Part shown: positions 7,403 to 60,811 of the stretch, one piece after another
Numbering within the stretch: the first letter of the stretch is position 1
Layout of the letters: each line of letters starts with the position of its first letter
IMG/VR virus record: IMGVR_UViG_3300050159_000048
Source of the DNA: a virus
Taxonomy: Duplodnaviria; Caudoviricetes
Length of the DNA stretch: 64,000 nt
Strand: one strand, 5' to 3'
The notes under the pieces: model-generated
What the model saw: only the letters and a program-made list of their open reading frames with translations
The model's database searches: none
What the model was told of the DNA's origin: nothing
Position numbers and translations under genes: made by a program

Positions 7403-7409
7403 TATTTAT
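7403..7409 (-). promoter_or_regulatory. Late promoter ATAAATA (gp32 leader)
   Basis: cATAAATA upstream of gp32. Confidence 0.6.
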
Positions 7410-7418
7410 GCTAATACG

Positions 7419-7886
7419 TCACATCGGTACGAAATTTGTTTTGTGATCTTTGTTGTCCGTATTCCACGAACTCTTCATCAGGTATTGGTCACCTGTACCC
7501 TTGATGGCTTCCTCAGCATGTTCGCTGTTGAATTCACTAAGAGATGTACCGTACTGTTGGAGGAACTGGTCAACAGGCATTGGCTTACCGTCTACAGCCA
7601 CTTGCTTGATGCGAACAGATTCGACCTCAATACCCTGAGAATCACCACCCGACCCACCATGTCGGCCACGGGGGATATAATCGCTGTAATAGGTCGTAAC
7701 CGCAACAACACCACTGATTTGTACTGTACGTTCGGTTCCGTCTTCTTCATATACGTACGTTGTGAATGTTGTGTTGTACTCGTCGGCAGAGGGATCTGGT
7801 TCCTGACCGTCATAGTACGGCGAGCGAGGGTCAGATTCGTCACCGGAACGGTAGTCGCTTGGATCTAGAATTTCGTTTAGGCGCAT
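7419..7886 (-). CDS. Hypothetical late protein, possible internal head protein
   Basis: 155 aa, starts MRLNEI; late promoter upstream. Confidence 0.7.
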   Translation of the reverse strand: MRLNEILDPSDYRSGDESDPRSPYYDGQEPDPSADEYNTTFTTYVYEEDGTERTVQISGVVAVTTYYSDYIPRGRHGGSGGDSQGIEVESVRIKQVAVDGKPMPVDQFLQQYGTSLSEFNSEHAEEAIKGTGDQYLMKSSWNTDNKDHKTNFVPM

Positions 7887-7909
7887 GGTAGTATCTTCCT
7901 ATGGTGCGG

Positions 7910-8551
7910 TTATTTATGATTGTGTGTGGGAATGATCCCGTTTGATGGGGCGTACATGTTGGTTAAAGCCATTCCCATGTCGCGGTGATGTGCAGCATAT
8001 CGGTTACGAAACTGGTGAGTCATCATTGCGTGATGTTGGTGCCAAAAGTATCCAGGATAGTTCACATGGATAGCCCCATGTGTTAGTGCAGTGGTGGCTC
8101 GTAAAAACCAATCAATTCCAAACCCAAAGCGGTCTGATAATTGCTTAGCTTCGTGGCAAACCATTGAGCTCCTAAACACCGCAAGGTGATGAATTGTCCG
8201 TGGATGTATGGCAACTTCTAACCACGTTCGACGGTTTGTGTTACCATAAGTCTGTTCTCCTGTCGGAGAGACGATCACTTCATTTGTGAACGCTAAGCCT
8301 ACGGTTGGGTTTTCTTGCAAAGCCTCAACGCACAAGCGAAGTGAGTGCGGATCAATCGTATCGTCATCATCAACAACAGCTACGTATTCGTCAATGAATA
8401 GAGACTCGTACCTGTCACGTTCAAAGGTGTTATAGCATGGGATAATCACATGCTTACCCCCACTCGGTAACGCATTAGCTATCGAAGTTTTGCACCGGGA
8501 CAGACCATCTGCGTTTGTAAATTGAGTAAGGGTTGCTACTGTCAGTGACAT
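7910..8551 (-). CDS. GT-A fold (family 2-like) glycosyltransferase
   Basis: EYVAVVDDDD (DxD) followed by CVEALQENPTVGLAFT; later IDW and YFWHQH GT2-like motifs. Confidence 0.65.
   Translation of the reverse strand: MSLTVATLTQFTNADGLSRCKTSIANALPSGGKHVIIPCYNTFERDRYESLFIDEYVAVVDDDDTIDPHSLRLCVEALQENPTVGLAFTNEVIVSPTGEQTYGNTNRRTWLEVAIHPRTIHHLAVFRSSMVCHEAKQLSDRFGFGIDWFLRATTALTHGAIHVNYPGYFWHQHHAMMTHQFRNRYAAHHRDMGMALTNMYAPSNGIIPTHNHK
7911..7917 (-). promoter_or_regulatory. Late promoter ATAAATA
   Basis: cATAAATA ~25 nt upstream of ATG 7886. Confidence 0.65.
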
Positions 8552-9277
8552 TTAGCCCAACAATCGAATATCAGCCAACTTGGTGACCCTAAGCACGACT
8601 TGCGACACGCCCGTTATTCCTCCGGTTTCGTATCCTGATGTGTCTAGGCTAAGGGTCATTGTGGTAGTACCAGAGCCAAAGTCTGTAGATCCGATGTTTA
8701 CCAAATAGTGATCGGACCAACTAACTGCTGATGAAAAAATACCCATTCCTATTGTGGTTGTTGCTGTTGGCCGGAAGTGACGACGTTGGTGTGCTAACAC
8801 ACCAACTGTTGATGGGTGGCTAGATGCTGCGCCTACTACGTAGTTGTATGAATCATTGAATGTAATGCTACTACCATATGTTGTGTCAACGCCTAATGGC
8901 CAATCTGGGGTTGGGTTAGTAACATACATCGACGCAATTACTTGAATCTCATATAGACCTTGCACTATTGGTAACAGGGCTGCTCCGTACGGATCCAATG
9001 TGAGATATGTTGGCATTGAGAGAGGCATCGTTCCGCCAGTGCCGTGATCGGTCCATGTTGTTTGCGACCCACCAAATGAAAACACGCCTTCCAGCTGAAT
9101 GATCTGTGACGTAGGACTTCCTCCTCCGCCGCCAGCCGCTGGTGCTGCTGGCACCCACCGACCGGCCATCGACTCATATGTTAACACATCGCCACCCGTT
9201 GGAGAGATGGCATCCACGTCTGTTAGATTGTCGAGGGATAGCTCAACCTGCGAGCTTGTAATTTTCTTTTGTGTCAT
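8552..9277 (-). CDS. Fibre/decoration-like virion protein
   Basis: LDNLTDVDAISPTGGDVLTY...W fibre-attachment motif, poly-Gly linker, beta-rich C-terminus. Confidence 0.6.
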   Translation of the reverse strand: MTQKKITSSQVELSLDNLTDVDAISPTGGDVLTYESMAGRWVPAAPAAGGGGGSPTSQIIQLEGVFSFGGSQTTWTDHGTGGTMPLSMPTYLTLDPYGAALLPIVQGLYEIQVIASMYVTNPTPDWPLGVDTTYGSSITFNDSYNYVVGAASSHPSTVGVLAHQRRHFRPTATTTIGMGIFSSAVSWSDHYLVNIGSTDFGSGTTTMTLSLDTSGYETGGITGVSQVVLRVTKLADIRLLG

Positions 9278-9297
9278 ATTAAGAATCAATCAAAAAG

Positions 9298-10839: not shown

Positions 10840-10866
10840 GATGATTGACTCCAAAGAGAGATTTAG

Positions 10867-10873: not shown

Positions 10874-10906
10874 CAATATGGGATTGGTTTTGGGGTACAA
10901 ATCACG

Positions 10907-19561: not shown

Positions 19562-20646
19562 GAGGTAGTGGGAACCCGTAGTAGGCTAATATGCACTGTG
19601 TTTGCATCATTGTTCTTAACCTCTAGAGTCAGGCGGCCTGCAACTACCGTAGTGGTGAAGGCTAGATTCAGTTTGTCGGCGATCGTGCCGTATACGGAGT
19701 GGTCAGCGACGCCCTGCAATGTGTTATACCCCACTTCACATGCCATTGTGCGATTATCTTGGACGTCAATGGCCCCAAGTAGCCATTTACCACCAGACAC
19801 ATATCTGCCGTTAACAGTATCGACAGTCCTTGTTACACCAGCACCGATGTATACTATTTGCGGATGCCAAATCTTCATATCGGATTGGGACGGCGCACAG
19901 TTGTTTGCTGACGTTGAATGTACTGGGACTCGGGTGACGTCAACTGCAATATCCTCGGAACTTTGGTTTGTTAGTAGGATTTCCAATCCTTGATTGGCAA
20001 CCTCAATGAGCACGATATCATGATTCAGCGAACGTGATCCAACAACTGCGTATTCAACCCCTCTCGGGGTTGAACTCAGCTGAACCAACACTTGCGATGA
20101 TACGCTGGTGGTATCTGATGTTAATGTAATTGCCAGCTTGACAGCCATCATACCTAGGTCTGTGTCCGGAATGAAATCGATTAAGCCCTGTTGTAGAGCT
20201 CGGATCACTACGGTGTTTTGGGAGATTGGGAGATAAGATGTTGCTGCTTGAGGCTGATCATCAACCGGGACAATCTTGCGCGTAGCGTATACCACCAGCC
20301 CAACTAGTTCGCTGTTGGTGATTGACAACACGAGATTGCTACCAACGAGTGTTACAGTCGGGGTAATTGCGAACACACTACCTTCAAATCCGTATGTAAC
20401 AAATGTGGGGTTTGTGCCAGCACGGTGGGTAGCATGTACCTCAAACGTGCGCATGCGGCTACGGTCAGCATTTGTCACAGTTACGATCCACTTTGCTGTT
20501 CGTGCGATGGCTACCGCGATTGAATCTATAGAGGCACTGCTGCTGGCCGCCATAGTTTTTTGAACGGACACAACAGGATAAAAGTCACACACGGTAGAGG
20601 AGCCTGTTGCACACCGTGAATTTGATTTAGCTACGATTACACTCAT
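19558..20646 (-). CDS. Virion protein with three tandem beta-sandwich repeats
   Basis: Three ~100 aa units (AKWIV/AVKLAI/GGKWLL ... YG/YA ... L.L...N). Confidence 0.65.
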   Translation of the reverse strand: MSVIVAKSNSRCATGSSTVCDFYPVVSVQKTMAASSSASIDSIAVAIARTAKWIVTVTNADRSRMRTFEVHATHRAGTNPTFVTYGFEGSVFAITPTVTLVGSNLVLSITNSELVGLVVYATRKIVPVDDQPQAATSYLPISQNTVVIRALQQGLIDFIPDTDLGMMAVKLAITLTSDTTSVSSQVLVQLSSTPRGVEYAVVGSRSLNHDIVLIEVANQGLEILLTNQSSEDIAVDVTRVPVHSTSANNCAPSQSDMKIWHPQIVYIGAGVTRTVDTVNGRYVSGGKWLLGAIDVQDNRTMACEVGYNTLQGVADHSVYGTIADKLNLAFTTTVVAGRLTLEVKNNDANTVHISLLRVPTTS

Positions 20647-20666
20647 AAATCCAACCAGTTAGACCG

Positions 20667-20673
20667 TATTTAT
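20667..20673 (-). promoter_or_regulatory. Late promoter within start-codon-pairing hairpin
   Basis: CTCATAAAT/ATTTATGAG 9-bp inverted repeat 20642-20676. Confidence 0.7.
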
Positions 20674-20700
20674 GAGACGCTTGTGGGGCAATCGGCGGTC

Positions 20701-21741: not shown

Positions 21742-22479
21742 ATGAGCGACGCATCCACTATTAAAATCAATCCAGCCAAGAAGAGTGACCTTGAATTCGA
21801 TGTTATGATTCAGGGCGTGGATGACACTGCTCCTCCAACCGTTCGCTTTGTCATTACCAGCGAAGCGCAGCAGTGTGACTATTCCTTCAAATGCTCACGC
21901 ATTGACGGGGAAGAGTACAAGTGGGTAGCTAAGCTCCCAGCTCTCACACAAGTGCAAGAAAGCAACGTGCCTTTCCGCGTTGAAGTGATCGTTGACGGGT
22001 ATTATTTTGAACCAGCAGCTGGAACTGTAATGTTGGTTACTGATCCTTCCGTCAAGTTCCAACCATCCGTATCTAAACCAAAGGTAACGACGTCGTTTAC
22101 GGTGAAGCAAGACGATGATAAGCCTGCCGAACCGAAGAAACCAGCCAAGGTTAAGGAAGCTGTTGAGGAAGCTGTAACGCTTCCTGAAATCGTTGACCCG
22201 GTCATTGAAACCCCAGCGCCAGTTGAAGAGATTGTTATGGAACAACCAATTGAGATTGTGCCACCTGCCGTAGAGGAAGCATTCAACCCATCTACAATTG
22301 CGCAGAACATCGTCCGATCCACAATCGGTAAGTCTATTGAGCGACCAGCGACACGCGGTCAACTCTTCAAGCGCAGCCAAGATGGCAAGGCTGTTGTTGC
22401 TGGCATTGAATCACCAGCGGATAAAGCGGCAAAACGCGCCAAAGAGGCGCGTGTCAAGGAAATCTTGGGATCTAATTAA
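21742..22479 (+). CDS. Hypothetical protein
   Basis: 245 aa; beta-rich N-domain plus Glu/Pro-rich linker; AAGGA RBS. Confidence 0.7.
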   Translation: MSDASTIKINPAKKSDLEFDVMIQGVDDTAPPTVRFVITSEAQQCDYSFKCSRIDGEEYKWVAKLPALTQVQESNVPFRVEVIVDGYYFEPAAGTVMLVTDPSVKFQPSVSKPKVTTSFTVKQDDDKPAEPKKPAKVKEAVEEAVTLPEIVDPVIETPAPVEEIVMEQPIEIVPPAVEEAFNPSTIAQNIVRSTIGKSIERPATRGQLFKRSQDGKAVVAGIESPADKAAKRAKEARVKEILGSN

Positions 22480-23036
22480 CTGGGCAGAATTAGCCCAGTT
22501 GCTTGCACTTGTTGAACCACTTTGAGTAGGTGCTTGCACAAACCCGGCACTTGGTTGGGGTTAACTGGCGGGCGATTGGTCTTTTTCACGTACGGGGGCG
22601 GCGGCTTTCCAACCAAAGACTTGTCTTGCGCATTGTAGTTTGCGAACCGGTAGTGGAAGTCCATGCAGTTGCACCGAACTTTTGCGTTGTGCATCGCAAG
22701 ATTGATTGGAGCAGCGTGGAACTCTGTTCCATCCGCAGCTTGCAACGTAATGACGCCGGAACCACTCTGAGAGCTAAATGGAACCTTGGTCAACTGAATT
22801 GCTTGCTTATATGGATTACCGTTGCTGACTGTGTTTGACCGAATGTGCAACATCTTCATGCCGAGATACGGGATGTACTCGATGGCCTGAACCGTTACCT
22901 CGCCTGTGGCGTGTTGCCGTTTTTTGGTCGTGGGGAATTCACGCTCAATGTTATCTTCCAGATCGGACACAGTTGAAACTTCGTTCAGCTGATTCACGAT
23001 CCGTTCGCCCCGAATTGTCCACAATTGTTCAGTCAT
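22476..23036 (-). CDS. SWIM zinc-finger protein
   Basis: VRCNCMDF...CKHL (CxC...CxH). Confidence 0.7.
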   Translation of the reverse strand: MTEQLWTIRGERIVNQLNEVSTVSDLEDNIEREFPTTKKRQHATGEVTVQAIEYIPYLGMKMLHIRSNTVSNGNPYKQAIQLTKVPFSSQSGSGVITLQAADGTEFHAAPINLAMHNAKVRCNCMDFHYRFANYNAQDKSLVGKPPPPYVKKTNRPPVNPNQVPGLCKHLLKVVQQVQATGLILPS

Positions 23037-23063
23037 AGGTAGGTGTCTCCACCTACCTATTTA
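23035..23063 (-). promoter_or_regulatory. Late promoter TAAATA overlapping an RBS-occluding hairpin
   Basis: Minus: TAAATAGGTAGGTG-GAGA-CACCTACCTATG; 11-bp stem. Confidence 0.75.
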
Positions 23064-23070
23064 CTGAATC

Positions 23071-24216
23071 TCACGAAGTGAGATTGTGATCGCTCGTCAA
23101 GACGTTGTCGAACTCACCAACCAAGGGCTGCTGAAGCGACATGTACTGCTGACGAACAGCGGATTCAGGCACGCTCTTATCACCACGAGTCTGCTGGCGA
23201 GCCAACACCGTGTCCAACGACACCGGCATCAGCACAGCAACAGTGTGGAAACCATGCTTCTTGGCGACTCGCAAATACCAACCACGACGCTTGGCCGACA
23301 GGTTCGTGTTGTCAACATACAGGTGGCGGCCAGCAGCCCACGCCTCCTTAGCCATCTGGTGAAAACGAGCATTCGCTCGCAACTCAAACGACTTGTCCTT
23401 CACAGAGCCCTCATACGCCTTAGCGTAGTCGTCAGCATCGTAGAACTCATGGCGCAGCAGATCCAGGGAAAACACATCGATCTGCTCACCGTCGTTGGCA
23501 GCGTTCGCCTGCGCCTGCCGCAGGAACGTGCTCTTGCCAGCGCCAGACGGAGCGATCGGCATCCACAGGGAGGGAACGTGTTCGGTACGGTCGCACGCAA
23601 CAACCGCGTTCTTCGCTCGGGCACGCATCTGCTCAACCCACTCATCAGAGTTGCGACGCTTGGTGTTGCTGTCGTCACTGATACGGCCGTACTGATCCGA
23701 CAGCAGAGCACGGAACCAAACCTGGGGCATGTTCTCCCCCATCGAATTGACGGTAGCAGCCAAGAAGTCCAGCTTCGTTTCGTCGGTGATAGACCAGGGC
23801 ATGTGGTGTTCGATCATCCAGCTGACGGCGCGGATGTCCTTAGCCGACAGCAGCTTGTTCGACGTGGCGTAGTCTTCGAACATGCGAGCAGAGATCAGTT
23901 CGTGACCACCGTACCTCCGGTATTCCCCACGCTCCTGACTCCACACAGTCTTTTCAGCCGCAGGCTTACCGACGTCGTGGAAAGCACACACAAGCGCACC
24001 AAGGTAGTCGTACCAACCCCACGGCTCAGCAAAAAATTCGCATTCAGCATCAGTACGGTCGAGATATTCTTGCACAACCATTTGGGTGTGAACCAACACA
24101 TTCGCTTCGCGGTGCCAGGGGCTGCCTTCCACGGTGCGTTCCATGCGCTGGAACATGGGGGTGGTTTGCAGATCAGCAAACAGCTTCACGAATTGGGTGC
24201 GGTAGGTGTCAGTCAT
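23071..24216 (-). CDS. HD phosphohydrolase fused to P-loop polynucleotide kinase (AAA_33-like)
   Basis: HREANVLVHT...FHDVGK...HELIS...EHH HD domain; APSGAGKST, SLDLLR, VDNTN kinase motifs. Confidence 0.8.
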   Translation of the reverse strand: MTDTYRTQFVKLFADLQTTPMFQRMERTVEGSPWHREANVLVHTQMVVQEYLDRTDAECEFFAEPWGWYDYLGALVCAFHDVGKPAAEKTVWSQERGEYRRYGGHELISARMFEDYATSNKLLSAKDIRAVSWMIEHHMPWSITDETKLDFLAATVNSMGENMPQVWFRALLSDQYGRISDDSNTKRRNSDEWVEQMRARAKNAVVACDRTEHVPSLWMPIAPSGAGKSTFLRQAQANAANDGEQIDVFSLDLLRHEFYDADDYAKAYEGSVKDKSFELRANARFHQMAKEAWAAGRHLYVDNTNLSAKRRGWYLRVAKKHGFHTVAVLMPVSLDTVLARQQTRGDKSVPESAVRQQYMSLQQPLVGEFDNVLTSDHNLTS

Positions 24217-24239: not shown

Positions 24240-24268
24240 ACTATAACGACTTTCCCCTTAACAGTCAA
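24240..24268 (-). promoter_or_regulatory. sigma70-type promoter for the HD-kinase gene
   Basis: TTGACT-N17-TATAGT; the -35 overlaps the terL stop. Confidence 0.75.
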
Positions 24269-26770: not shown

Positions 26771-28201
26771 TTATCCAAGAATGTCAAATCCACTCATTGG
26801 ATTACTGAATTTGGATGATAGATCGCTTGCTGCGGTTACAGCCGAACTGTACAGCGTTTGAGCTTGAGCTGTTGCCGTATTCATCAGGTTCTGTGCAGAC
26901 GTGCTCAAGCTTGACAGCGGGTTGCTAACAACCGATGCGAGTGTAGATGACTTGTTTGGTGCTCCGACATACCGTAGCGGATAGTACGCACCACGTTGAA
27001 GATCGGCAAACGAAGCCGTTGACATATCAACATCAGGCTCGAGGTACAAACTGTCATATCCAAATGTCAGGGACAGTTCGTTCCCTTCGCTTCCTGCTGA
27101 CATATCAACATCATCGAGGGCGAGCGTAGTGATACGTGGGTTGGAGAAGTGCCATACATTCATCCGGTTGCCGTTGTCGAAGATGTGGTACATGCGGATC
27201 TCAGAGAAGATACTTTTTACATCTTTGTTTAGAGGACCGGTAGATGCAGAGTACACGTTTGCGGGAATGTGCTGCAAAATTTGATCTGCTGCGAGCACAC
27301 TAGTGTCACTGTACGACATGCTATCCTGCTCTAGGATGCTTGGTGTTGTCCCGCCGTTGCTTGGGTTCATGCCAGATGACGGAATCATGGCACGCAAGTA
27401 GGAGTGATAGAACGTGGTGGCGTAGTTCATATTGTCGTCGTGGAACGACATGGTCATGTCTTCGTACTCTGTTTTAGTAAGAATTTTGGTACGATGGCCG
27501 TAATAGTTTGCGTCTTCGTATATGAACTTAGGATTTGGCCGCGTAGACTTCTTTACAGCAAAGGCCATGTTCAATGGCCCGGTGGCCGTATTCAGCTCAG
27601 CGTACGCTCCGTTTACCACGAATTCAATTACAAACAAGAATTTGTATTTTGGTGCTCGAGCAATCAGGTCAACGGCGTATGGGGAATACTGGCAGTGTTC
27701 TCCTAGCGATGATTGCACGTCGTCCCCACCAGGCGTAAAGATGCTGCGGCCGAGACGTTCCAAGTTCTGGAAGTCTTGTAGTACATTGGGGATGTCACGA
27801 GCTTTGAATTTGCCACGTTTAACGGAGTCAAACACTACCTTTGCCTGTCCGTATGCCTGGTTTGCAATTTCGGGATGGAAGCCGCGTAGGGTGTCGACTA
27901 CGGAGGGGGCAATGCCCGTTGTTTCAAGCACCCAGTTTGCACCGTTGTCAATGGATGATCCAATCGAAGACGGGAGTGCTCCGTTCCCCACACGAATGGT
28001 GTTTGAGATGCTGGCAAGAGTGCGTAGTCCTGCACCGACTTTGCCGGCGCCCACACTATTCAATACGGCTAGGTCACCGACTTTGCCTATAGCATTGAAA
28101 AAGTCGCGGCGAGCACTCGTCGCACTGCCAATGCTTGCGCCACTACGGTCAGCATAAGATGGCTCACATTGTTTAACGGTAAAAGTACGTGGATCACCCA
28201 T
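26771..28201 (-). CDS. Tail-tube-like baseplate/tube initiator protein (gp54/gp48-like)
   Basis: Tube-fold segment KSTRPNPKF...YEDMTMSFHDD...LTFGYD. Confidence 0.6.
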   Translation of the reverse strand: MGDPRTFTVKQCEPSYADRSGASIGSATSARRDFFNAIGKVGDLAVLNSVGAGKVGAGLRTLASISNTIRVGNGALPSSIGSSIDNGANWVLETTGIAPSVVDTLRGFHPEIANQAYGQAKVVFDSVKRGKFKARDIPNVLQDFQNLERLGRSIFTPGGDDVQSSLGEHCQYSPYAVDLIARAPKYKFLFVIEFVVNGAYAELNTATGPLNMAFAVKKSTRPNPKFIYEDANYYGHRTKILTKTEYEDMTMSFHDDNMNYATTFYHSYLRAMIPSSGMNPSNGGTTPSILEQDSMSYSDTSVLAADQILQHIPANVYSASTGPLNKDVKSIFSEIRMYHIFDNGNRMNVWHFSNPRITTLALDDVDMSAGSEGNELSLTFGYDSLYLEPDVDMSTASFADLQRGAYYPLRYVGAPNKSSTLASVVSNPLSSLSTSAQNLMNTATAQAQTLYSSAVTAASDLSSKFSNPMSGFDILG

Positions 28202-28233
28202 GAAAATCTCCAGATTTGGAGTATTTATGGGTG
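28195..28233 (-). promoter_or_regulatory. Late promoter ATAAATA (28222-28228) inside an RBS/ATG-occluding hairpin
   Basis: Minus: CACCCATAAATACTCCA-AATC-TGGAGATTTTCATGGGTG. Confidence 0.75.
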
Positions 28234-28602
28234 CGTAAACTTCCTCTGCCTCCAGTGATCAGCTCGAATTTCAACTGTCAGCAGCTCTTCGTGCAACCAG
28301 TTAGCGGACTGAATCCAGCACCCTTCGAGAGTACCTGAGTAATCCGTATCCAGGCCCAGAAGCTCAAGACTGCATTTTGCTGAGAGTCCAGACCTGAGCT
28401 GTGCGTCCAGTTGTTCGTTGATCAGTGACGCCAAGTGCTGATTATCAGCAGTTAGAGGGATATTGATAGTCACTGGAGCCCACACCAACCCAACGGTATG
28501 CTGACTGTTTATGGGATTGGTTATTGTTGCCGATTCAACGACGCCATCACCAACGGCCATTTTGTGGGCCGCTGTTGTTATTGTTATTGCTGCATTAGTC
28601 AT
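28225..28602 (-). CDS. Hypothetical protein, probably early
   Basis: Open frame; ATG 28602 lies 7 nt after a sigma70 -10. Confidence 0.6.
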   Translation of the reverse strand: MTNAAITITTAAHKMAVGDGVVESATITNPINSQHTVGLVWAPVTINIPLTADNQHLASLINEQLDAQLRSGLSAKCSLELLGLDTDYSGTLEGCWIQSANWLHEELLTVEIRADHWRQRKFTHP

Positions 28603-28608
28603 CCGGTT

Positions 28609-28637
28609 AGCGTAACCCCGCTCATTCAACAAGTCAA
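28609..28637 (-). promoter_or_regulatory. sigma70-type promoter
   Basis: TTGACT-N17-TACGCT immediately after the tail-tube terminator. Confidence 0.65.
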
Positions 28638-28638
28638 C

Positions 28639-28666
28639 AAAAAAGGGTGCCGAAGCACCCTTTTTT
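28639..28666 (-). terminator. Intrinsic terminator after tail tube gene
   Basis: AAAAAAGGGTGC-TTCG-GCACCCTTTTTT (cUUCGg loop). Confidence 0.9.
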
Positions 28667-28681
28667 CAATCACCGTAATGA

Positions 28682-29272
28682 TTAAATCTTACCTGCGCCG
28701 CCTGTGGCAATGCCCAGACCTTGATCGTAACCTCCAAGACTCTGACGAGCGTGGTCGAAACGAATCGTTAGGTTGATGTTCACAGCATCAGATGTGGAAG
28801 CGTAGTCCAGATCCGTCCAGTCAACTTCCTTCAGCCAGCAACCTTCCATCGTCCACTTTTCAACAACCTGATCACGGCCGTCGAGCATGTCGATGTAGGT
28901 AACGAACTTGTACAGCGAACCTTCGCCAGCTGCGCCCAACCATTGGCCTTCTGCACCAATCAACCACTGCTGCTTTTGCAGTTGAGCTTGAATGACGCGC
29001 GATGCTGCTGACGTAATGTCATCTTGAATCGTTAGGGACATTGGATCCCACGTATGCTTACCAGCAACCCATGCGGTTGAGTTGTAGCGATGCAATTCAA
29101 TTTCGCTCTTAGACAGCTTCGGGCGGGTAACAGTGATGGCTTGCATTGACACAGGGATGCTGTTTTCGCCGCCTCCCATGCCTGCAAATGTTACACGCCA
29201 GCGGTTCTTGTGCTTAGGATGCGCAATACCAGAGCCGACGCCAGGGATACCAAAATCATTAATTGTACTCAC
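28682..29272 (-). CDS. Tail tube protein (gp19-like)
   Basis: NRWRVTF, VTRPKL, AGKHTWDPMSL, WTMEGCW, LTIRFD; GTG start with AGGAG RBS. Confidence 0.88.
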   Translation of the reverse strand: MSTINDFGIPGVGSGIAHPKHKNRWRVTFAGMGGGENSIPVSMQAITVTRPKLSKSEIELHRYNSTAWVAGKHTWDPMSLTIQDDITSAASRVIQAQLQKQQWLIGAEGQWLGAAGEGSLYKFVTYIDMLDGRDQVVEKWTMEGCWLKEVDWTDLDYASTSDAVNINLTIRFDHARQSLGGYDQGLGIATGGAGKI

Positions 29273-29294
29273 GGTTGTTCTCCTTTTGTCTCTC

Positions 29295-29300
29295 TATTTA
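29295..29300 (-). promoter_or_regulatory. Late promoter TAAATA
   Basis: Overlaps the sheath stop codon, upstream of tube gene. Confidence 0.5.
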
Positions 29301-31274
29301 GATTTCCGTGCCTGTTGCAACAACGCGGATTGGGATGTAGATGAATTCAGCTGCGCGTACTGGCTTCAGTGCAATGTCGATGTACATCTCGTTGCGGTCG
29401 ATGCGGTCAGCAGTGTTGTTTGATTCATCACAAATCGTCGCAAAGTCGTAGAGGCCGCGCTTGGTGATCAGGTCACCAAGGAATCCGTCTACGGCAGCCT
29501 TCAGGTTGTCGCGAGTCAGTTGATCGTTTGGTTCAAACACAAACGGCATGGTGTTCTTGCGCAGTTGACGACGAACGTAGCCAAGCAGACGTTCAACGTT
29601 GATGCGGTCACGAGCCGAAGCAGCAGGCGCCGAGGTCTTTTGACCCCACACAATGATGCCACGACCTGGGAAGAACACGATCGGGTTAATGTTTGTGAAG
29701 TATTTGTACATGTTGTCACGCTGACCTTGGTTCAGAGCAACTGGTACAAATGTTGTAGCAGCACCCAATGTACCGGTGACGTAGCCAACGTCTGACAGAC
29801 CAGATACCAAGCCACGGCGAGTACCTGCTGGCGCAAACCACAGTTCCGACACATCGTCGCTGTATGTCAATGTGCGCAGAGCAATGCCCGAAGCTGCAAC
29901 GAATACGTTGGTGCCGTCGAGGTTGGACGCAAAGCCGTGTGGGTAGTAGTAAGCGATGCCAACGCCAGTACGACGTGCGGTAGTAGCTGCCCACGTGACC
30001 ACATCTTCAGGCGACAGGTTCATTGGTGTATCAGCAATCACAAATGCTTCGTCTTGGATGTCCGTGCGCAGGGCCAGCATTTCGTCAGCAACTTCGTGGT
30101 AGCCTGGGCACAGGATCAAGTTGTACTCATACGATTCAGAACGGATGTCAGTATTGCTGTTGACTGCTGCTTGAAGAGCATTGACAATTGCAACACGACG
30201 CGCCGCATCGTTAGCACCAAGACTTGTTTGGTCACGGAAGGTAATCGTGTACTTAAACTGGTCTCCCGATCCAAGTAGCAGGTTTGCTGCTTCTTGGGCA
30301 GTAAACTCCGTAGCTACAACACTACCTTGTCCACCGTTCACGAATGCTGCAGTGTCACCCTTAAAGCCTTTGAAAGCGCCAACAGCTGGTTGAGTGTAGC
30401 CGTTAGGATACATTGGTTGAGGGACAGCTGTCACATCGTCAGTGAAGCTAGCTTGTGAGTTGCGGAACGAGAACTTCTGCCAAACAGCCGTAGTAGCGGT
30501 TGCTGCCAGTGATTCAACTGTGGCTTTAGCAACGGTTGACTTGTATCCTGTGATAGTTGCAACAGTTAGTTGGAAGCCCGTACCGCCAGTCAGAGCTGCA
30601 GCGGTCAGGATGTTGCCAACTTGATAGCCGGTGCCACGCATCGTAGGTGTGATCGAAGCGCTTGTAACAGTTCCGCCTGCGCCAACAACAATCGTTGCCG
30701 TTGCGCCAGTACCTGTACCACCAGACAACACGACGTTGGTGTATGTGCCAGGTGTGTAACCCGTACCAGCCGTAACCGTGACAGTGTTGACGAGACCAAC
30801 GCTACTGACGACGAAGCCGTTAGATAGGTTGTATTCGTTCAAATACGAGTTGATTAGGTTTTCCAGAACGTAGCTGGATTCCTGCATCTTCGTATCCCAC
30901 ATCGTGCGGATACTTGCTAGGTCATCGTCTAGGTTCACGTTGGCGCGGACTACGTATGCGTAGCTACCAACACCAAGGAACTGGTTCAATGCGAATAGAC
31001 CGTATTCGTTACGAGCATCGCCGTGGAACTGACTGCCTGTGGAGTCTTTACGGAACTTCGGAACGCCGTACAGTTCTGTGCTTTGCTTCAACGACGTGAC
31101 CGTACGAATGACGTTGCTTTCAAATGTGCCGGCAGCGTCGGTGACGCCGTCTGCACGCTTCTTCTCATCTGCTGTAGCGATGAAGATTAGAGGTACTGTG
31201 GCCGCAGCCGCAGGGATGAAAAACGATTCATCTGTAACGGTTACGCTTACGCCAGCACTTACGAGGTTTGCCAT
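29298..31274 (-). CDS. Tail sheath protein (gp18-like)
   Basis: LVSAGVSV, WFAPAG..RG, INPI..F, WGQKT, RINVERL, DESNNT..RID, IDIALKP..AAEFI. Confidence 0.95.
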   Translation of the reverse strand: MANLVSAGVSVTVTDESFFIPAAAATVPLIFIATADEKKRADGVTDAAGTFESNVIRTVTSLKQSTELYGVPKFRKDSTGSQFHGDARNEYGLFALNQFLGVGSYAYVVRANVNLDDDLASIRTMWDTKMQESSYVLENLINSYLNEYNLSNGFVVSSVGLVNTVTVTAGTGYTPGTYTNVVLSGGTGTGATATIVVGAGGTVTSASITPTMRGTGYQVGNILTAAALTGGTGFQLTVATITGYKSTVAKATVESLAATATTAVWQKFSFRNSQASFTDDVTAVPQPMYPNGYTQPAVGAFKGFKGDTAAFVNGGQGSVVATEFTAQEAANLLLGSGDQFKYTITFRDQTSLGANDAARRVAIVNALQAAVNSNTDIRSESYEYNLILCPGYHEVADEMLALRTDIQDEAFVIADTPMNLSPEDVVTWAATTARRTGVGIAYYYPHGFASNLDGTNVFVAASGIALRTLTYSDDVSELWFAPAGTRRGLVSGLSDVGYVTGTLGAATTFVPVALNQGQRDNMYKYFTNINPIVFFPGRGIIVWGQKTSAPAASARDRINVERLLGYVRRQLRKNTMPFVFEPNDQLTRDNLKAAVDGFLGDLITKRGLYDFATICDESNNTADRIDRNEMYIDIALKPVRAAEFIYIPIRVVATGTEI

Positions 31275-31306
31275 GTGTGACTCCTAGGGAAATCAAATTA
31301 TGGCAT

Positions 31307-31313
31307 TATTTAT
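31307..31313 (-). promoter_or_regulatory. Late promoter ATAAATA
   Basis: gATAAATA upstream of sheath; TGCCAT/ATGGCA 6-bp pairing with the start region. Confidence 0.65.
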
Positions 31314-36641: not shown

Positions 36642-36673
36642 ACTGAGATTTCCTCGTTATGAGCGTTATTTAT
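36636..36673 (-). promoter_or_regulatory. Late promoter ATAAATA (36667-36673) with ATG-pairing hairpin
   Basis: Minus: ATAAATAac GCTCATA acgaggaaatctcag TATGAGC. Confidence 0.65.
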
Positions 36674-36687
36674 GGGCTGAGAATAAA

Positions 36688-46082: not shown

Positions 46083-46104
46083 ATGTTTACCCTTGAGATT
46101 GTGG

Positions 46105-46134
46105 TATTTACGTTATTGATCCCTGTATTAAATA
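46105..46134. promoter_or_regulatory. Back-to-back late promoters TAAATA (- at 46105-46110, + at 46129-46134)
   Basis: One per divergent gene. Confidence 0.6.
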
Positions 46135-46155
46135 CCACACACATAAGGAGAAACT

Positions 46156-47496: not shown

Positions 47497-47979
47497 TCAG
47501 TCCGGCATGCGCGCAATCCAATACGCGTCGGTCAAATCCGTGAGACCGGTAGTCTTCTTAAAGCCTGCGTCTAAAAACTTCTGTCGAACGTCGTCTGAGA
47601 GTGCTTCTATCATTGCCTTTTTATCAGCCTTGCCACTTCCTGTGGCCTTCTTTTTCACCGAAGTAGGTGCGTATTCCTTGAATACGATAGTGGGGTGCTC
47701 GTAAGCAACAAGATTGACGATCGTAAACAACAATCCAGCCAAGTCTCGAGTTGCATCCCCTCTGATTCCGAAAGCCAATCCTTCTGCTTTAAGCATCGTT
47801 GGATTATGTTTCTTGATCAGTTCACAGATTTTCTTTGCGGTTGACAACGCACGGGCGTATGTAGTGTCCGTTTTTTCGGTTGTAAACCGTCCGAATTCTT
47901 CCATCTGCTGTGATTCAGTGTTCCACAATACGTATCCACAGCTAGTATACGATTGGTCAATTCCCAGTACAAGTGCCAT
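47497..47979 (-). CDS. ruvC: RuvC-like Holliday junction resolvase
   Basis: LGIDQS, catalytic E (KAEG), PTSVKK.ATGSGKADK, D..DA. Confidence 0.85.
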   Translation of the reverse strand: MALVLGIDQSYTSCGYVLWNTESQQMEEFGRFTTEKTDTTYARALSTAKKICELIKKHNPTMLKAEGLAFGIRGDATRDLAGLLFTIVNLVAYEHPTIVFKEYAPTSVKKKATGSGKADKKAMIEALSDDVRQKFLDAGFKKTTGLTDLTDAYWIARMPD

Positions 47980-48018
47980 TTTACCCTCTCTAAACCTATT
48001 TAAGAGGGTAAAATGGCA
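47974..48018 (-). promoter_or_regulatory. RBS/ATG-sequestering hairpin with late promoter in the loop
   Basis: TGCCATTTTACCCTCT-TAAATAGGTTTAG-AGAGGGTAAAATGGCA; 16-bp perfect stem. Confidence 0.85.
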
Positions 48019-49783: not shown

Positions 49784-50839
49784 TTAGAGGCGCCGGTATT
49801 GTTGTATTAGTAGGGCGTTATCAATTTGGTCTGATTTGATGTCTGAGAGCATCTGAACAATCAAGTCATCAATCGTCGTTCCGTCTGTATCACCCGATGC
49901 TTCAGGAACATCAACGTCCGTTTCCGTTCCGCTGATGGCTTCGACAGCATCTTTGGGCTCTTCGTATGTGAATTCACGCAATTCAAATTGCTTCATCATT
50001 AGTTCCCGTAGATTGTTTGTCTCTTCAAGTGACAATTCCTCATCTAAGACACATTTCACCCGTGACTGAGGACGTATAATAATACCTCCATCCAGGATCT
50101 TTGACACCTTGAACCGGAGGTAAAGGGGAGCGTCCGGCCAATCTTGGAATGTTACATCGCGGATGGTATGGTCGTATACGGCCATACCTCGACTGTAATC
50201 ACCAACGTCACCAAAGTCCATTGGAAATGTGTTGCCGATGTATACAATGTTGTCCTTCTGCTGTCGTTGATGGAAATGGCCTGACAGAATGTGTTCTGGG
50301 CCCGCGAACTTTTTGTGGTCAGGTCCGTGTTGCATTACCATGCTGTAACCGGTAACGCGGAAACCTTGAAATTCGAAGTGTCCTGCCCAAAACGGTAGAC
50401 TCAGATACTCGTCCAGCTTGTCGTACTCTTCGTGAAATAGATACGGACTGAAAAAGGCCCCATCCCCTATTTCTGGAATAATCGTTGGGGTATCGATCAC
50501 ACGAAAATTCGAAAACTCCTGGAATGGTAGGACGGAGTAGATTTCTCGCGTATGTCGATGATACAGGTCGTGATTCCCAACAACAAAGTAAACTGGTAGA
50601 CCTAAGTCGTTTAGCATTTTTGCGCCAGTATACGAATACGTCAGAGTTGCTAGGTTGATGGCGCTACGGTTTTCATTCCAATCACCCAAGAACCCAACGT
50701 AATCGATCGTTGGATCGGCCCGCACTTGCTCACAAAACCACCGCAGGTGGTTTAGACAGTCTTGATTGTGTATTGGTGAGTTGGACTTCTTGCCGAAGTG
50801 GATGTCGGTAAGAAACGCACCTTTCTTCAGTTGTGTCAT
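49784..50839 (-). CDS. gp47/SbcD-like nuclease
   Basis: TDIHFG, LGDW, GNHD, GHFE, SGHFH. Confidence 0.93.
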   Translation of the reverse strand: MTQLKKGAFLTDIHFGKKSNSPIHNQDCLNHLRWFCEQVRADPTIDYVGFLGDWNENRSAINLATLTYSYTGAKMLNDLGLPVYFVVGNHDLYHRHTREIYSVLPFQEFSNFRVIDTPTIIPEIGDGAFFSPYLFHEEYDKLDEYLSLPFWAGHFEFQGFRVTGYSMVMQHGPDHKKFAGPEHILSGHFHQRQQKDNIVYIGNTFPMDFGDVGDYSRGMAVYDHTIRDVTFQDWPDAPLYLRFKVSKILDGGIIIRPQSRVKCVLDEELSLEETNNLRELMMKQFELREFTYEEPKDAVEAISGTETDVDVPEASGDTDGTTIDDLIVQMLSDIKSDQIDNALLIQQYRRL

Positions 50840-51450
50840 GCCAAGCTGTCCTCGCTGCTATCAGCATCATCCAGCTCAACGGCTGCCAATTCGTCAGCCA
50901 TTTCCGCAACCTCTTGGTCAATGATTTCGCGACCATTCTCATCGCGTTCGATTGGAGCATCAATGAATTGAACCTTTTGTTGGCGCTCAATGCCAGACGA
51001 AAGAGTGTCGAAGTCTTGCTCATCTTCAATGTAGTGTCGATCACTACCATCTTCGTTGAAACCAAACGAAGGATTTAGCCCCTGTGCAATCATCATCTTG
51101 TCGCGCAACACACGATGTTTCTTTTCGTGCTTCAGATATTGTGAGAACGAGTTCTTAATGCACTGGGTGTAGAATGCGAATGGATTGCTACTGACTTCAG
51201 GATTGAAACTCTTCCAGGTTCGCACAATCATCATCATAGCGTACGCTTGCATGTCTTGATTGTATGAATAGCCGCTGTAACTGCCCTTCATAGCATACCG
51301 CGAACACAGCAATTGCAGCATCTTGGCGAATGTGTTGGACATTTCGCCCTTCTCCTGCGACGCCTTGTACTCAGCTAGCAGTTCCTTATTGTTGAGATAG
51401 ATCGTACGACCGTTTTGTGTAATTGATGTGGGGTAGTTTTTGGTTGCCAT
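50836..51450 (-). CDS. gp55-like late-transcription sigma factor
   Basis: YLNNKELL, YSY.QDM, FNPE.S.NPFAFYTQ..KNSF...EKK; ATG 51450. Confidence 0.9.
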   Translation of the reverse strand: MATKNYPTSITQNGRTIYLNNKELLAEYKASQEKGEMSNTFAKMLQLLCSRYAMKGSYSGYSYNQDMQAYAMMMIVRTWKSFNPEVSSNPFAFYTQCIKNSFSQYLKHEKKHRVLRDKMMIAQGLNPSFGFNEDGSDRHYIEDEQDFDTLSSGIERQQKVQFIDAPIERDENGREIIDQEVAEMADELAAVELDDADSSEDSLA

Positions 51451-57067: not shown

Positions 57068-57451
57068 ATGATTAAAGGTCTTTACCGCGGCTACTCATCC
57101 CACGAGTACCAAAACAACAAACGATTCAACCTCACTGACGTAGAGTTGGTGAAGTTGGATCTGCTCAATCACATCTTCACTCGTCGGGGTGAACGGGTGA
57201 TGATGCCTACGTTTGGTACCCGGATCCCCGACCTGCCTTTTGAACCTCTAGATCAACTGACCTTGGACGTACTAGAGGAAGACCTGCGCGCAGTATTCAC
57301 CTTCGATCCAAGGGTTGAGCTACTAAAACTAAACATCATTCCACTGTATGATCAAAATGCTGTAATTGCCAGCGCTCGCCTGCAATACATTGAGCTGAAT
57401 ATGGTGGACAATCTAGATATCAACCTCGTTTTTGAAGGTACTACACAATGA
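57068..57451 (+). CDS. Baseplate wedge gp25-like
   Basis: TRRGERVMMPTFGT.I..L.FEP, DPRV. Confidence 0.92.
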   Translation: MIKGLYRGYSSHEYQNNKRFNLTDVELVKLDLLNHIFTRRGERVMMPTFGTRIPDLPFEPLDQLTLDVLEEDLRAVFTFDPRVELLKLNIIPLYDQNAVIASARLQYIELNMVDNLDINLVFEGTTQ

Positions 57452-60400
57452 GCCGACTAGTCGCAAGAGCCGAATCATGGGAGCGCGCGTACGAAGCATT
57501 CCAAGACATCAACTTTGCAGCGTTTGACTATGATACAGTCAAACGTAGCATCCTTGACTACGTCAAGCTACACTTTCCTGAGACATTCAATGACTTCATT
57601 GAATCAAGTGAGTTCGTTGCAATCGTAGAAGCCTTTGCGTATATCGCTGAATTGATGGCGTATCGCATTGATGTAACCGCGCATGAAAACTTCATTAGCA
57701 CTGCTCAACGCAAGGACTCGATCCTGCGTTTGGCAAAGCTCGTATCCTACTCAGCATCACGGGCATTACCTGCACGTGGTCTGGTTAAGATCACATCTGT
57801 ATCAACCACTGAAACTGTAATTGACGCAAATGGTATCAACCTTGCGAATCGCACAATCCGTTGGAATGATACAAGCAACTCGAATTGGAAGGATCAGTTC
57901 ATCCTGGTGATGAACCGCGTGTTGGAGCAAGAGTTTGGCACTGTAAGCCCAACTGATCGTTTCCAAATTCAGGACGTGTTGTTTGAAACGTATACGTGGA
58001 ATCTAACTCCGCTGTCAAACGGTGTATTCACATACACTGCAACGATCAACGGCACGGCAGCTCCGTTGGAGCTGATCCCTGTTGCGTATGATTCCAAGCT
58101 TGGAATCATCGAACGTCGTCCTCAAAACAACACAAACTTCTCATTTGTGTACGGCCAAGATGGCCTTGGTGATGGTTCTGACACAACTGGCTTCTTTTGT
58201 TTCACAAAACAAGGTCAGCTGCAACGTTTCCGCACCACATTCGACGGAGTGACGCCAAACCAAACATATGACGTCACTGTATCAAACGTAAATGACACCG
58301 ACATCTGGGTTAACGCGGTAGACGCATCAACCGGTGCAACTAAAGACGAACCGTCCTTGCTACCATATCGCCGTGAAACCCTACAAGGTAAGTCAGGTGA
58401 GTGGGTACAGGTTGACTTAGCTCACGCGCAGAACGTCATATTCAACACAAACCCACGCCGCAACAAGTACGAAATCGAAACACGTTCTGATAACAGTGTA
58501 CGCATCCTGTTTGGTGACGGTGAGTTTGCAGACGTTCCTAACGGAACCTTCGATATTTGGGTTCGTACGTCGCTTGATGCAGACATTGTTGTTCCGCAAG
58601 CCTCTGTTGTCAACACACCTGCAACGTTCACATATACTGACTCGTTTGGCCGCATCCAGACATTCACGTTCACATTCTCTTTGATCAACTCTCTGCAGAA
58701 TGCTTCTGCGTCGGAAACGATCGAACACGTTCGGGTCACAGCTCCTGCTGTGTACTACTCCCAAGACCGCATGGTTAACGGCGAAGATTACAACGTGTAT
58801 ATGCTTCAGGATCCATCAATTCTGAAATTGCGTTCGCTGAACCGCACGTTTGCTGGTGATTCAAAGTTCATTCCGTGGCATGACGCCTCAACCACATATG
58901 AAAATGTGAAGATTTTCGGTGATGATGGTATTTTGTACTTCCAAAACATAGGAAACACCACAACAACGCCAATTGTTGACCTCACATCTCTGATCACGAC
59001 ATATATTGAGCCGCTGCTATCGTCAACTGACATCTTCCTACAGCTTGTCAGCTTGGGTGTGCCCGTTGCTTCGTACCGTCGAGTGTTTAATGCAAACGAA
59101 CGCGTTCGTATCCAAGCAGCGCTAACACCACCCCCAGTCCCTGCTAAGGCCGAGTTGTATTACAACCTGACGACGTTTGAATGGTACGCAATCAAGGAAT
59201 CGGAAGATCCAGCTGTTGCCCTGGCTAGCTATGGATGGAGCTCTGGACAATTCCACACCACGCCTCTGATCATCGTCAACCAATCGTCAATCTACGAGAC
59301 TAGCTACAACGTTACTCGCAACGCTCGTCGTATGGTGTTCCAGAGTCAAACAACACAATTTTGGAACACAAATCAATCAGAGCGTGTGATCGATTATGAC
59401 ACCCTTCGATCTAGCTACGATCAGGTGGTTGTCATGCAAGCCAACGTCAACTACAACCGAACCGGTGTTCTTCAACAGAACTGGAAGTTTGACGTTCTAA
59501 GCCAAGAGCTGATTGATAGCGGCACCAATGCTGGATTGCCTGACCCGCAGCGCCTGTCAGTCATTCCGTCGGATGAGAACCAAGACGGTATTCCTGACTA
59601 CCTAACAGTGGATGAAGCGGTGTATCACTACGGTGTTGCTGATATTATGATGCCTAAGTACACCACTACTGTGCCGAGCATCCCAGTTAACGGCAGCGTT
59701 GACCTAGTGTTACCAATCCCGTACTTGTATAGTGTTGACAACTTGGTTCGTCGTCAAGACAACAATATCCAGAACCCCGCATCAATTGACTACACGCCCG
59801 ACGTTCGCCTGTACCGTAAGGTATCCGGTAGTTGGGTAGAGATTCCAAATCGCCCCGATGCCGGCATGATCTCAATTGACACATACTGGGGGGTTCCAAA
59901 GTCACAAACTCAATTTGTATGGAACAAGATTCGTCTGTACTACCCAATTGTAGCTTTGGCGGGAGGTGTTGGCTCTGAGTTGATGATTAAGGTCAACGAC
60001 TACGTGTACTTTAGCCGCGCATCTCAGACAAGTGAGTGGGTGCCTGCTGACACGACCGTTGACTCAATGGCACAATATGCAAATGATGCTCTCACAGGAA
60101 CCTCGTTGTGGAAGCGTCTTGAGGGCCGGTCGAACTTGAACTTTGCGTGGCTACACTACTCCCCACGTTACCACTTGGTAGACCCATCGCCGTCGAACAT
60201 CATCGACACGTATGTTATCACCAAGGGGTACTACATGGCAATGAAGCGTTGGTTGGAGGATCCTCTGGCAACAGCTCCGTCAGCAGTAACGCCACTTGAG
60301 CTGCGCACATCATACGGATACTTGCTTGATAACAAGATGATCTCCGACACAGTTGTCTTGCGCCCAGGCAATATTAAGTTGATGTTTGGGTCAAAAGCCA

Positions 60401-60747
60401 CTGCGGCGATGCAGGCTACGTTCAAGGTTATCCGGTCAGCTGACAAGACACTAACCGACAACCAGATCAAGACAATCATCGTAACCACCATTCGTAACTA
60501 CTTTGATATCACGCGCTGGGAGTTCGGTGAGACGTTCTACTTCACAGAGTTGGCTGCCGCAATCCACGCAGCGCTACCTACAGAAATCTCGTCAGTTGTG
60601 TTGGTTCCAAAGTATGAATCTAACCAATTCGGCGACATGTTCCAGGTGCTGGCGCGTGAGGATGAGGTCCTGTATCCAGACATATCTGTCAGCAATGTTG
60701 AGATTGTGTCAGGATACAACTCAACGAACCTGCGACTGAATGGCTAA
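57448..60747 (+). CDS. Baseplate wedge gp6-like
   Basis: D.NF.A.D..T.K, FI.TAQR.DS...A.L..Y, FGDG.F, Q.RMV..EDY; C-terminal FGETFYF.EL. Confidence 0.88.
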   Translation: MSRLVARAESWERAYEAFQDINFAAFDYDTVKRSILDYVKLHFPETFNDFIESSEFVAIVEAFAYIAELMAYRIDVTAHENFISTAQRKDSILRLAKLVSYSASRALPARGLVKITSVSTTETVIDANGINLANRTIRWNDTSNSNWKDQFILVMNRVLEQEFGTVSPTDRFQIQDVLFETYTWNLTPLSNGVFTYTATINGTAAPLELIPVAYDSKLGIIERRPQNNTNFSFVYGQDGLGDGSDTTGFFCFTKQGQLQRFRTTFDGVTPNQTYDVTVSNVNDTDIWVNAVDASTGATKDEPSLLPYRRETLQGKSGEWVQVDLAHAQNVIFNTNPRRNKYEIETRSDNSVRILFGDGEFADVPNGTFDIWVRTSLDADIVVPQASVVNTPATFTYTDSFGRIQTFTFTFSLINSLQNASASETIEHVRVTAPAVYYSQDRMVNGEDYNVYMLQDPSILKLRSLNRTFAGDSKFIPWHDASTTYENVKIFGDDGILYFQNIGNTTTTPIVDLTSLITTYIEPLLSSTDIFLQLVSLGVPVASYRRVFNANERVRIQAALTPPPVPAKAELYYNLTTFEWYAIKESEDPAVALASYGWSSGQFHTTPLIIVNQSSIYETSYNVTRNARRMVFQSQTTQFWNTNQSERVIDYDTLRSSYDQVVVMQANVNYNRTGVLQQNWKFDVLSQELIDSGTNAGLPDPQRLSVIPSDENQDGIPDYLTVDEAVYHYGVADIMMPKYTTTVPSIPVNGSVDLVLPIPYLYSVDNLVRRQDNNIQNPASIDYTPDVRLYRKVSGSWVEIPNRPDAGMISIDTYWGVPKSQTQFVWNKIRLYYPIVALAGGVGSELMIKVNDYVYFSRASQTSEWVPADTTVDSMAQYANDALTGTSLWKRLEGRSNLNFAWLHYSPRYHLVDPSPSNIIDTYVITKGYYMAMKRWLEDPLATAPSAVTPLELRTSYGYLLDNKMISDTVVLRPGNIKLMFGSKATAAMQATFKVIRSADKTLTDNQIKTIIVTTIRNYFDITRWEFGETFYFTELAAAIHAALPTEISSVVLVPKYESNQFGDMFQVLAREDEVLYPDISVSNVEIVSGYNSTNLRLNG

Positions 60748-60768
60748 CACCCGGTAAAAAACGTCCAA

Positions 60769-60811
60769 TACCCTCTCATAAATATCCATGAACATAGCAT
60801 ATGAGAGGGTA
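60769..60811 (+). promoter_or_regulatory. Late promoter ATAAATA (60778-60784) in an RBS-pairing hairpin
   Basis: TACCCTCTCATA/TATGAGAGGGTA 12-bp perfect stem. Confidence 0.75.

Follow-up and report, generated by a model that had tools for sequence, protein, structure and literature searches.

The DNA considered here is a window of 64,000 nucleotides (nt), corresponding in reverse complement to bases 10062-74061 of one virus record of 174,565 bp (IMGVR_UViG_3300050159_000048), in which late genes are preceded by TAAATA promoters and, at several of them, an inverted repeat joins the surroundings of the promoter to the ribosome-binding site or start codon of the gene. The question raised by this locus is whether such hairpins act as translation locks, as described for bacteriophage T4, and whether they constitute a general design extending over the whole window, as had been claimed in an earlier note on this DNA. 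The analysis indicates that a T4-type lock is probably carried by a minority of the late genes, with about six strong cases and up to about 13 among the 35 late leaders of the record, four or five of them in the window.

According to the proposed mechanism, an inverted repeat would pair sequence located at or upstream of a gp55-type late promoter with the gene's own Shine-Dalgarno sequence (SD), its start codon, or both. Long transcripts arriving from upstream promoters would contain the two arms, fold, and be poorly translated, and the late transcript, starting about 6 nt after TAAATA, within or past the 5' arm, would offer an open ribosome site. The clearest cases would be late genes that end early-type operons, namely those encoding a RuvC-type resolvase and a 186-amino-acid (aa) protein with a CxC...CxH pattern. 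The sequence shows where the promoters lie, which stems can form, that these exceed the controls and that some are conserved, and from this the late start, the read-through transcripts and the effect on translation are inferred.

Late promoters and the hairpins around them

The window contains 20 copies of ATAAATA (4.7 expected), 12 of CATAAATA (1.1 expected) and a single one of TATAAATA. In the whole 174.5-kb record TAAATA appears only 52 times, both strands taken together, and 35 of these copies sit 14-55 nt (mostly 17-33 nt) before the SD and start codon of a called gene, the distance to the start being 17-32 nt at every hairpin site listed below. ATAAATA is also the 7-mer with the highest enrichment upstream of starts, both in the record and in a 155-kb relative (G001). 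The earlier counts hold, with 23 sites (22 TAAATA before window genes plus an orphan at 7403) and 17 ATAAATA sites, 10 preceded by C and one by T. A variable first position of the motif is already known in T4-like phages, Aeh1 using CTAAATA, and in T4 TATAAATA occupies positions -13 to -6 (PMC1524935). The late start was therefore assigned to the sixth nt after TAAATA.

The hairpins are listed below with the minimum free energy (MFE) of the whole leader, its z-score relative to dinucleotide shuffles and, where given, ddG, the difference between the long and the short RNA in the cost of freeing the stretch from SD to AUG.

47974-48018, minus strand (site 48002): candidate lock before the RuvC-like resolvase gene; stem perfect over 16 bp and reaching 22 bp when extended; TTAAATA (48003-47997) in the loop, SD and AUG (47979) in the 3' arm; MFE -28.0 kcal/mol, z -8.1.
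23035-23063, minus strand (site 23063; element 23029-23067): candidate lock before the 186-aa gene; GTAAATA at 23064-23058, 5' arm from the last three promoter bases, SD in the loop, AU of the AUG (23036) in the 3' arm; MFE -31.7 kcal/mol with the upstream neighbour hairpin included, z -6.6, ddG 20.7 kcal/mol.
60769-60811, plus strand (site 60779): candidate lock before a 3327-aa gene (GTG at 60817); 12-bp perfect stem, 5' arm including the CATA of CATAAATA (60777-60784), 3' arm formed by the SD region; MFE -19.2 kcal/mol, z -5.75, ddG 13.2 kcal/mol.
28195-28233, minus strand (site 28227): candidate lock before a 476-aa tube-like gene; outer 7-bp stem joining promoter flank and CAT to the AUG plus 4 nt, inner 5-bp stem joining an anti-SD to the SD; MFE -19.8 kcal/mol, z -2.3, ddG 8.8 kcal/mol.
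36636-36673, minus strand (site 36672; element 36636-36674): CATAAATA, then a 7-bp stem over the AUG of a 991-aa gene, the 5' arm starting 3 nt after the promoter; MFE -12.4 kcal/mol, z -2.8, ddG 7.6 kcal/mol.
20642-20676, minus strand (site 20672): 9-bp repeat of the promoter itself with the start-codon region of a 362-aa gene; real, unsupported as a lock; MFE -15.0 kcal/mol, z -0.9, no better than shuffles, ddG 1.0 kcal/mol.
31269-31305 (site 31312): weak case; MFE -16.5 kcal/mol, z -2.3, ddG 2.9 kcal/mol.
29270-29310 (site 29300): weak case; MFE -7.1 kcal/mol, z -0.3, ddG 0.

Thus, the six inverted repeats that had been named as locks (the first six listed) are all present, and four of them are strong when judged as locks (48002, 23063, 60779 and 28227), 36672 being moderate and 20672 supported neither by folding nor by relatives. 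Regarding the two sites that had been considered weaker, 31312 is weak only, with an inner anti-SD hairpin lying downstream of the predicted late start, and nothing was found at 29300. For each strong candidate, the start predicted for the late RNA lies within the 5' arm or past it. That of the RuvC-like gene would coincide with the first base of the 3' arm, those of 60779 would lie and 28227 beyond all 5' arms, and those of 23063, 36672 and 31312 within the 5' arm, so that just 2-4 of its bases would be retained. The effect at 36672 depends on the exact late start, because its 5' arm begins so close to the promoter. When the leaders were folded with and without the 5' arm, as had been proposed, the cost of opening the ribosome site was 9-24 kcal/mol higher on the long than on the predicted late transcript for the four strong locks.

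The genome-wide tests compared all 35 late leaders of the record with 181 non-late genes. In a swap test, the 50 nt upstream of predicted start i were joined to leader j, and the pairing of the ribosome site with the upstream sequence was measured. Native combinations reached 0.378 and swapped ones 0.300 (p 0.008), and p was below 0.001 with the start moved 2-4 nt downstream; over all these start positions the native values ranged from 0.38 to 0.44, against 0.30-0.31. No native excess appeared in the 181 non-late genes (0.287 vs 0.280). The pair-probability lock score does not register a hairpin when the assumed start falls within its 5' arm (36672 scores 0.00 with the start at +6, and T4 soc 0.19), and for this reason stem counts and opening energies were added. 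Of the 35 late leaders, 7 have a perfect stem of 7 bp or more that joins pre-start sequence to the translation initiation region, with 1.5 expected from swaps; five leaders have stems of at least 8 bp (0.4 expected) and four of at least 9 bp (0.1 expected), with binomial p values of 5e-4 to 1e-5. Among the non-late controls, 11 of 181 have a perfect stem of at least 7 bp (6.1 expected), and Fisher's test of late leaders against controls gave 0.014.

Opening energies point in the same direction, the mean long-minus-short difference being 4.96 kcal/mol for late leaders and 1.61 kcal/mol for controls (p 3e-6). The highest values correspond to 48002 (24.3), 23063 and 60779, followed by two sites outside the window (11.1 and 9.8) and by 28227. 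Six of the 35 late leaders (17%) exceed 8 kcal/mol and 13 (37%) exceed 5 kcal/mol, compared with 4% and 10% of the controls; T4 processed with the identical pipeline gave 17% and 22%, compared with 4% and 7% of its controls, and its known locks were recovered (gene e, 10.6; I-TevII, 12.7). In stem frequency, the late leaders exceed both the swapped chimeras and the non-late genes. The claim of a general design did not survive, since 60-80% of the late leaders have no such stem and the frequency of strong and moderate cases is about that of T4. The arrangement is recurrent and selected, yet confined to a minority of genes, and thus it is not a window-wide design.

Two candidate locks in the relatives

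The record, which has a completeness of about 50% (CheckV) and a GC content of about 49%, belongs, as judged from its genes, to a jumbo phage of the T4 superfamily that has not been cultivated, and covers part of its genome. This assignment follows from the gene set of the window, which encodes a large terminase, tail sheath, tail tube, portal, major head protein, baseplate proteins, SbcC- and SbcD-like nucleases and a gp55-type late sigma factor, and from the closest cultured matches, which are jumbo phages (e.g., RsoM2USA and XacN1) with about 30% protein identity. A megablast search with 20 kb against a phage collection gave no match. A homologue of T4 gp45 was sought in the record and not found, a result that carries little weight because only about half of the genome is represented.

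The genes and the promoter related to the two clearest cases are the following.

50836-51450, minus strand: gp55-type late sigma factor (match to T4 gp55, E 9.8e-6; phrog_234, 1.7e-23), heading the early-type operon that runs into the RuvC hairpin.
47497-47979, minus strand: RuvC-like Holliday junction resolvase, 160 aa (PF02075, 5e-10; phrog_159, 2.7e-27).
24240-24268, minus strand: early-type promoter TTGACT-N17-TATAGT (10 of 12 matches), before the AAA_33 kinase-like gene at 23071-24216.

The RuvC-like gene is the last of a minus-strand block that includes the gp55-like, SbcD and SbcC genes and has no TAAATA of its own; a TTGCCC-N17-TACTAT box was read by eye upstream of the gp55-like gene. 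Freeing the ribosome site of the RuvC leader costs 26.7 kcal/mol on the long RNA and 2.3 kcal/mol on the short one. RuvC homologues are abundant, and in relatives with 59-62% identity in this protein the spacing from TAAATA to the ATG is 21-25 nt, compared with 17 nt in the window. In all of them a helix joins pre-start sequence to the SD or the AUG, with arm sequences that are unrelated: the stem has 8 bp plus an inner 7 bp in L026, 7+3 bp in L029, 13 bp in L031, 11 bp with one G-U pair in L033, and 12 bp in the IMG/VR contig L014. The z-scores range from -3.1 to -5.8 in L026, L029, L031 and L033, and the whole leader of L014 gives a non-significant -1.2. Across these leaders the duplex energy is -18.3 kcal/mol in native and -11.2 kcal/mol in swapped combinations (p 0.0017). 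The late leaders of the portal, baseplate and 311-aa genes of the same syntenic loci have no lock, in the window and relatives alike.

The hairpin of the 186-aa gene lies directly after the AAA_33 kinase-like gene, and there is no terminator between the 24268 promoter and the hairpin, which read-through from that promoter would reach. The promoter belongs to an early family of the phage, GTTGAC-N17-TATA[GC]T, with about 25 members in the genome, almost all outside the window, and similar boxes are present in relatives. The strongest stems had been placed downstream of sigma70-type promoters, a claim that is convincing for 24268, plausible by eye only for 51514, and weak for 28637, which keeps three of six bases in the -10 hexamer. 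Taking into account that the scans for sigma70 consensus (21 vs 21.5) and for terminators (20 vs 20.2) gave overall chance levels, only individual sites of both kinds were used.

In four relatives (L044-L047) a 10-bp helix links the last three promoter bases with the AU of the AUG, with 40 of 40 cells paired and both partners changed in two of the pairs; the stem of the window differs from this helix along its whole length. In other layouts the promoter occupies the loop of a stem of 11-12 bp (L048, L049) or lies within the 5' arm (L051, L053, L056). For the 17 leaders of this gene, native energies average -14.2 kcal/mol and swapped ones -9.5 kcal/mol (p <5e-5). Conservation of the pairing through changes in the arms, with a search for compensatory changes having been proposed as a check, is seen for the RuvC-like and 186-aa genes; it is partial at 60779 and 28227, and absent at 20672 and at the outer stem of 31312. 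Together with the position of the predicted late start and the drop in opening cost, the retention of these two candidate locks with changed but complementary arms supports the suggested likeness to T4 e, soc, 49 and I-TevI.

The 186-aa protein (22476-23036, minus strand) has no Pfam or PHROG match and at least 118 metagenome homologues; C122, C124, C167 and H169 are invariant, a CxC...CxH arrangement that by eye resembles a SWIM-like zinc pattern. Among 75 homologues of its gene (loci L057-L126), 30 have a TAAATA ending exactly 4-5 nt before the ATG, without an SD, five have an overlapping TAAATATG, and only 15 have an SD-bearing leader of 18-27 nt. In G001 (L036-L043) about 10 genes have TAAATA-N4-6-ATG, with a peak at N5 that is absent from the window's phage and from T4. 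With a T4-like start, the short spacing and the lack of an SD imply leaderless late mRNAs, for which a literature search found no report from gp55-type promoters. It is conceivable, although doubtful, that late-only translation of the same gene has been solved in this clade in two interchangeable ways, either by a hairpin lock (the window lineage, in which the 186-aa gene has three stem layouts or more) or by a TAAATA placed 4-5 nt before the ATG without an SD. In the second solution, a T4-like start would yield a leaderless late mRNA, and the read-through RNA would be devoid of any ribosome site. If so, leaderless messages would be a common product of gp55-type promoters among the uncultivated jumbo relatives, and in the course of evolution a lock could give way to a leaderless start and the reverse.

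The giant gene and the remaining sites

The open reading frame (ORF) of 3327 aa that starts at GTG 60817 (plus strand) extends past 64000, and its G001 homologue has 3018 aa. In L018 the 3' arm of its hairpin is retained with an imperfect 5' arm, and in G001 different nested stems surround the promoter. IMG/VR single-protein scans with the tube-like and giant genes returned just 1-2 relatives each. The hairpin at 28227 is partly retained in the relatives L046 and L044. It is preceded by a stretch of about 400 nt (28234-28680, minus strand) between the strong terminator of the tube gene and the tube-like gene, with the terminator and a weak promoter-like box at its upstream end and only a low-scoring 135-aa ORF (28225-28632); this stretch is missing in L044 and L046, and L045 has a 171-aa gene there. 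A strong terminator also lies upstream of 36672. As for 20672, it pairs about as well with swapped upstream regions (native 0.57, column mean 0.50), and the repeat is missing in relatives L045 and L046; the outer stem at 31312 is likewise not kept in relatives.

It had also been suggested that the CAT of the promoter may itself act as an anti-AUG. CAT pairs with the start AUG at two of the 10 CATAAATA sites before window genes (28227 and 20672), and leaders with CATAAATA have a lock score of about 0.29, lower than the value of about 0.41 for other late leaders, so that a general role of this kind was rejected.

Two very strong hairpins of the same form were observed in the genome outside the window. 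On the plus strand, at genome position 79996, one precedes a 483-aa gene and pairs a 5' arm containing TATAAA with a 3' arm that includes the SD (MFE -35.7 kcal/mol). On the minus strand, at genome position 49664, a hairpin of about 25 bp precedes an 86-aa gene; its apical loop holds CGTAAATA, and the SD is again part of the 3' arm (-42.3 kcal/mol).

Within the window, the orphan CATAAATA at 7403-7410 (minus strand) is 164 nt upstream of the next start (7239), and its long leader (region 7240-7410) contains hairpins and an SD without a lock. Two divergent late promoters, CGTAAATA on the minus strand and ATTAAATA on the plus strand, share one 73-nt gap (46083-46155), and their leaders (46129 and 46110) show 7.7 and 7.1 kcal/mol of extra opening cost when extended upstream. 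This cost probably reflects the mutual complementarity of the divergent leaders, not a lock, and read-through transcripts are unlikely at this pair.

Alternative explanations and known systems

Several points weigh against the lock interpretation. The rule that fixes the late start was borrowed from T4, and a start 3-4 nt further upstream at 23063, 36672 and 31312 would keep part of the stem in the late RNA. Control genes were given pseudo-starts, and their upstream sequence is more often coding. The covariation count for the 10-bp helix of the 186-aa gene comes from four sequences; as 72 of 500 shuffles reach it, it has no significance by itself. G001, with 43 TAAATA leaders, shows no swap-test excess and only a small difference in opening energy. 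Finally, the hairpin at 60779 comes after late baseplate genes and not after an early promoter; since late genes precede it, an early/late switch does not explain it, and it may instead limit translation of the 3327-aa protein from a polycistronic late RNA.

If the hairpins were elements of RNA processing or stability (RNase III-type sites or protectors of the 3' end of the upstream message), processing would free the downstream gene and the overlap of promoter and ribosome site would be secondary. The hairpins at 48002 (22 bp) and 49664 on the minus strand (about 25 bp) have the length that a double-strand RNase would need, that of 23063 stands directly after the stop of the upstream gene and beside a second hairpin, and 60779 lies between late genes. 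However, the excess is limited to TAAATA leaders and does not appear in the 181 other genes, the 3' arm is always over the SD or AUG, and in relatives the arms change while TAAATA always occupies the loop or the 5' arm and keeps its distance to the start; this explanation is considered unlikely, less so for the longest stems. Intrinsic terminators were rejected because no U-run was found after any strong hairpin. Chance or weak selection, by which an A/T-rich promoter would easily pair with an A/U-rich start region and only one or two hairpins would be functional, fits 20672, which pairs with almost any promoter of the set and is not conserved, as well as 29300 and 10872, which show nothing; in addition, neither T4 nor G001 has a swap-test excess, and the stem test in T4 was not significant either. 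It is contradicted by the binomial values for long stems, by three z-scores between -5.75 and -8.1, and by conservation with changed arms in two gene families. Chance is therefore quite unlikely as a global explanation, being contradicted for 48002, 23063 and 60779, and it is the best reading for 20672, 29300 and 10872.

It has also to be considered that the repeats could act in DNA, either as recombination-favouring promoter cassettes similar to the promoter early stem-loops (PeSLs) of T4-like phages or as palindromic operators. I-TevI, which represses its own synthesis, binds an operator over its late promoter (PMC2988022), and promoter bases lie within several 5' arms of the window. Nevertheless, the arms share no sequence among sites or relatives, which leaves no common operator, the 3' arm tracks the SD and AUG with no U-run after it, and the papers on PeSLs describe promoter-terminator modules and give no ribosome-site role (PMC2839356, PMC4122927). 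An action at the DNA level is accordingly regarded as very improbable, and the T4-type translation lock at a minority of late genes is retained as the preferred interpretation.

Under the translation-lock interpretation, the T4 device that prevents late proteins from being made from early transcripts would be old and widespread in the T4 superfamily, reaching uncultivated jumbo phages, with selection acting on locks at particular genes and not across the genome. The products that would be locked are a junction resolvase, a small zinc-motif protein and a 3327-aa protein of the virion region, whose early expression may harm the phage. In annotation, such hairpins could be used to flag late genes embedded in early operons.

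Among known systems, the hairpin of the Qbeta coat gene is similar in that a helix covering the SD reduces initiation proportionally to how stable it is, although Qbeta has no second promoter that removes the 5' arm (PMC2978339). PeSLs also enclose a promoter in a hairpin of variable sequence, but they are sigma70-type early promoters, promoter-terminator modules that mediate gene shuffling, and no ribosome-site sequestration has been reported for them (PMC2839356, PMC4122927); a sigma70-type promoter within the stem-loop was not found at the sites studied here, the enclosed motif being TAAATA without a -35 box. The closest parallel is T4, in which the late genes e, soc, 49 and I-TevI are locked on early and middle transcripts (PMC3014915). 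Further locks have been described for I-TevII, I-TevIII, segB, Aeh1 mobE and genes 25 and 26, the rule in T4 being that a lock is found on late genes which early or middle polycistronic RNA also carries (PMC2988022); the RuvC-like and 186-aa cases, both of which follow early-type operons, would fit this rule.

As in T4, the late promoter is in or beside the 5' arm, the SD, the AUG or both are in the 3' arm, the locked gene is downstream of earlier-expressed genes of the same strand, and the frequency of strong locks is 17% in both phages. The differences are that the lineage is a distant, uncultivated jumbo one of about 49% GC, known here from sequence alone, that the promoter is [C/G]ATAAATA or NNTAAATA and not TATAAATA, and that one lock (60779) is between late genes. 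What is new, therefore, is the presence of probable T4-type locks at a handful of genes in a new lineage, the mechanism being already known from T4. In both phages a junction-resolving nuclease is among the locked genes (T4 gene 49; PMC3014915), although the resolvase of the window is of the RuvC type and not an endonuclease VII, doing the same job with a different protein family. This recurrence on a resolvase of another family suggests that what is constrained is the activity, the premature cleavage of branched replicating DNA, and not the gene.

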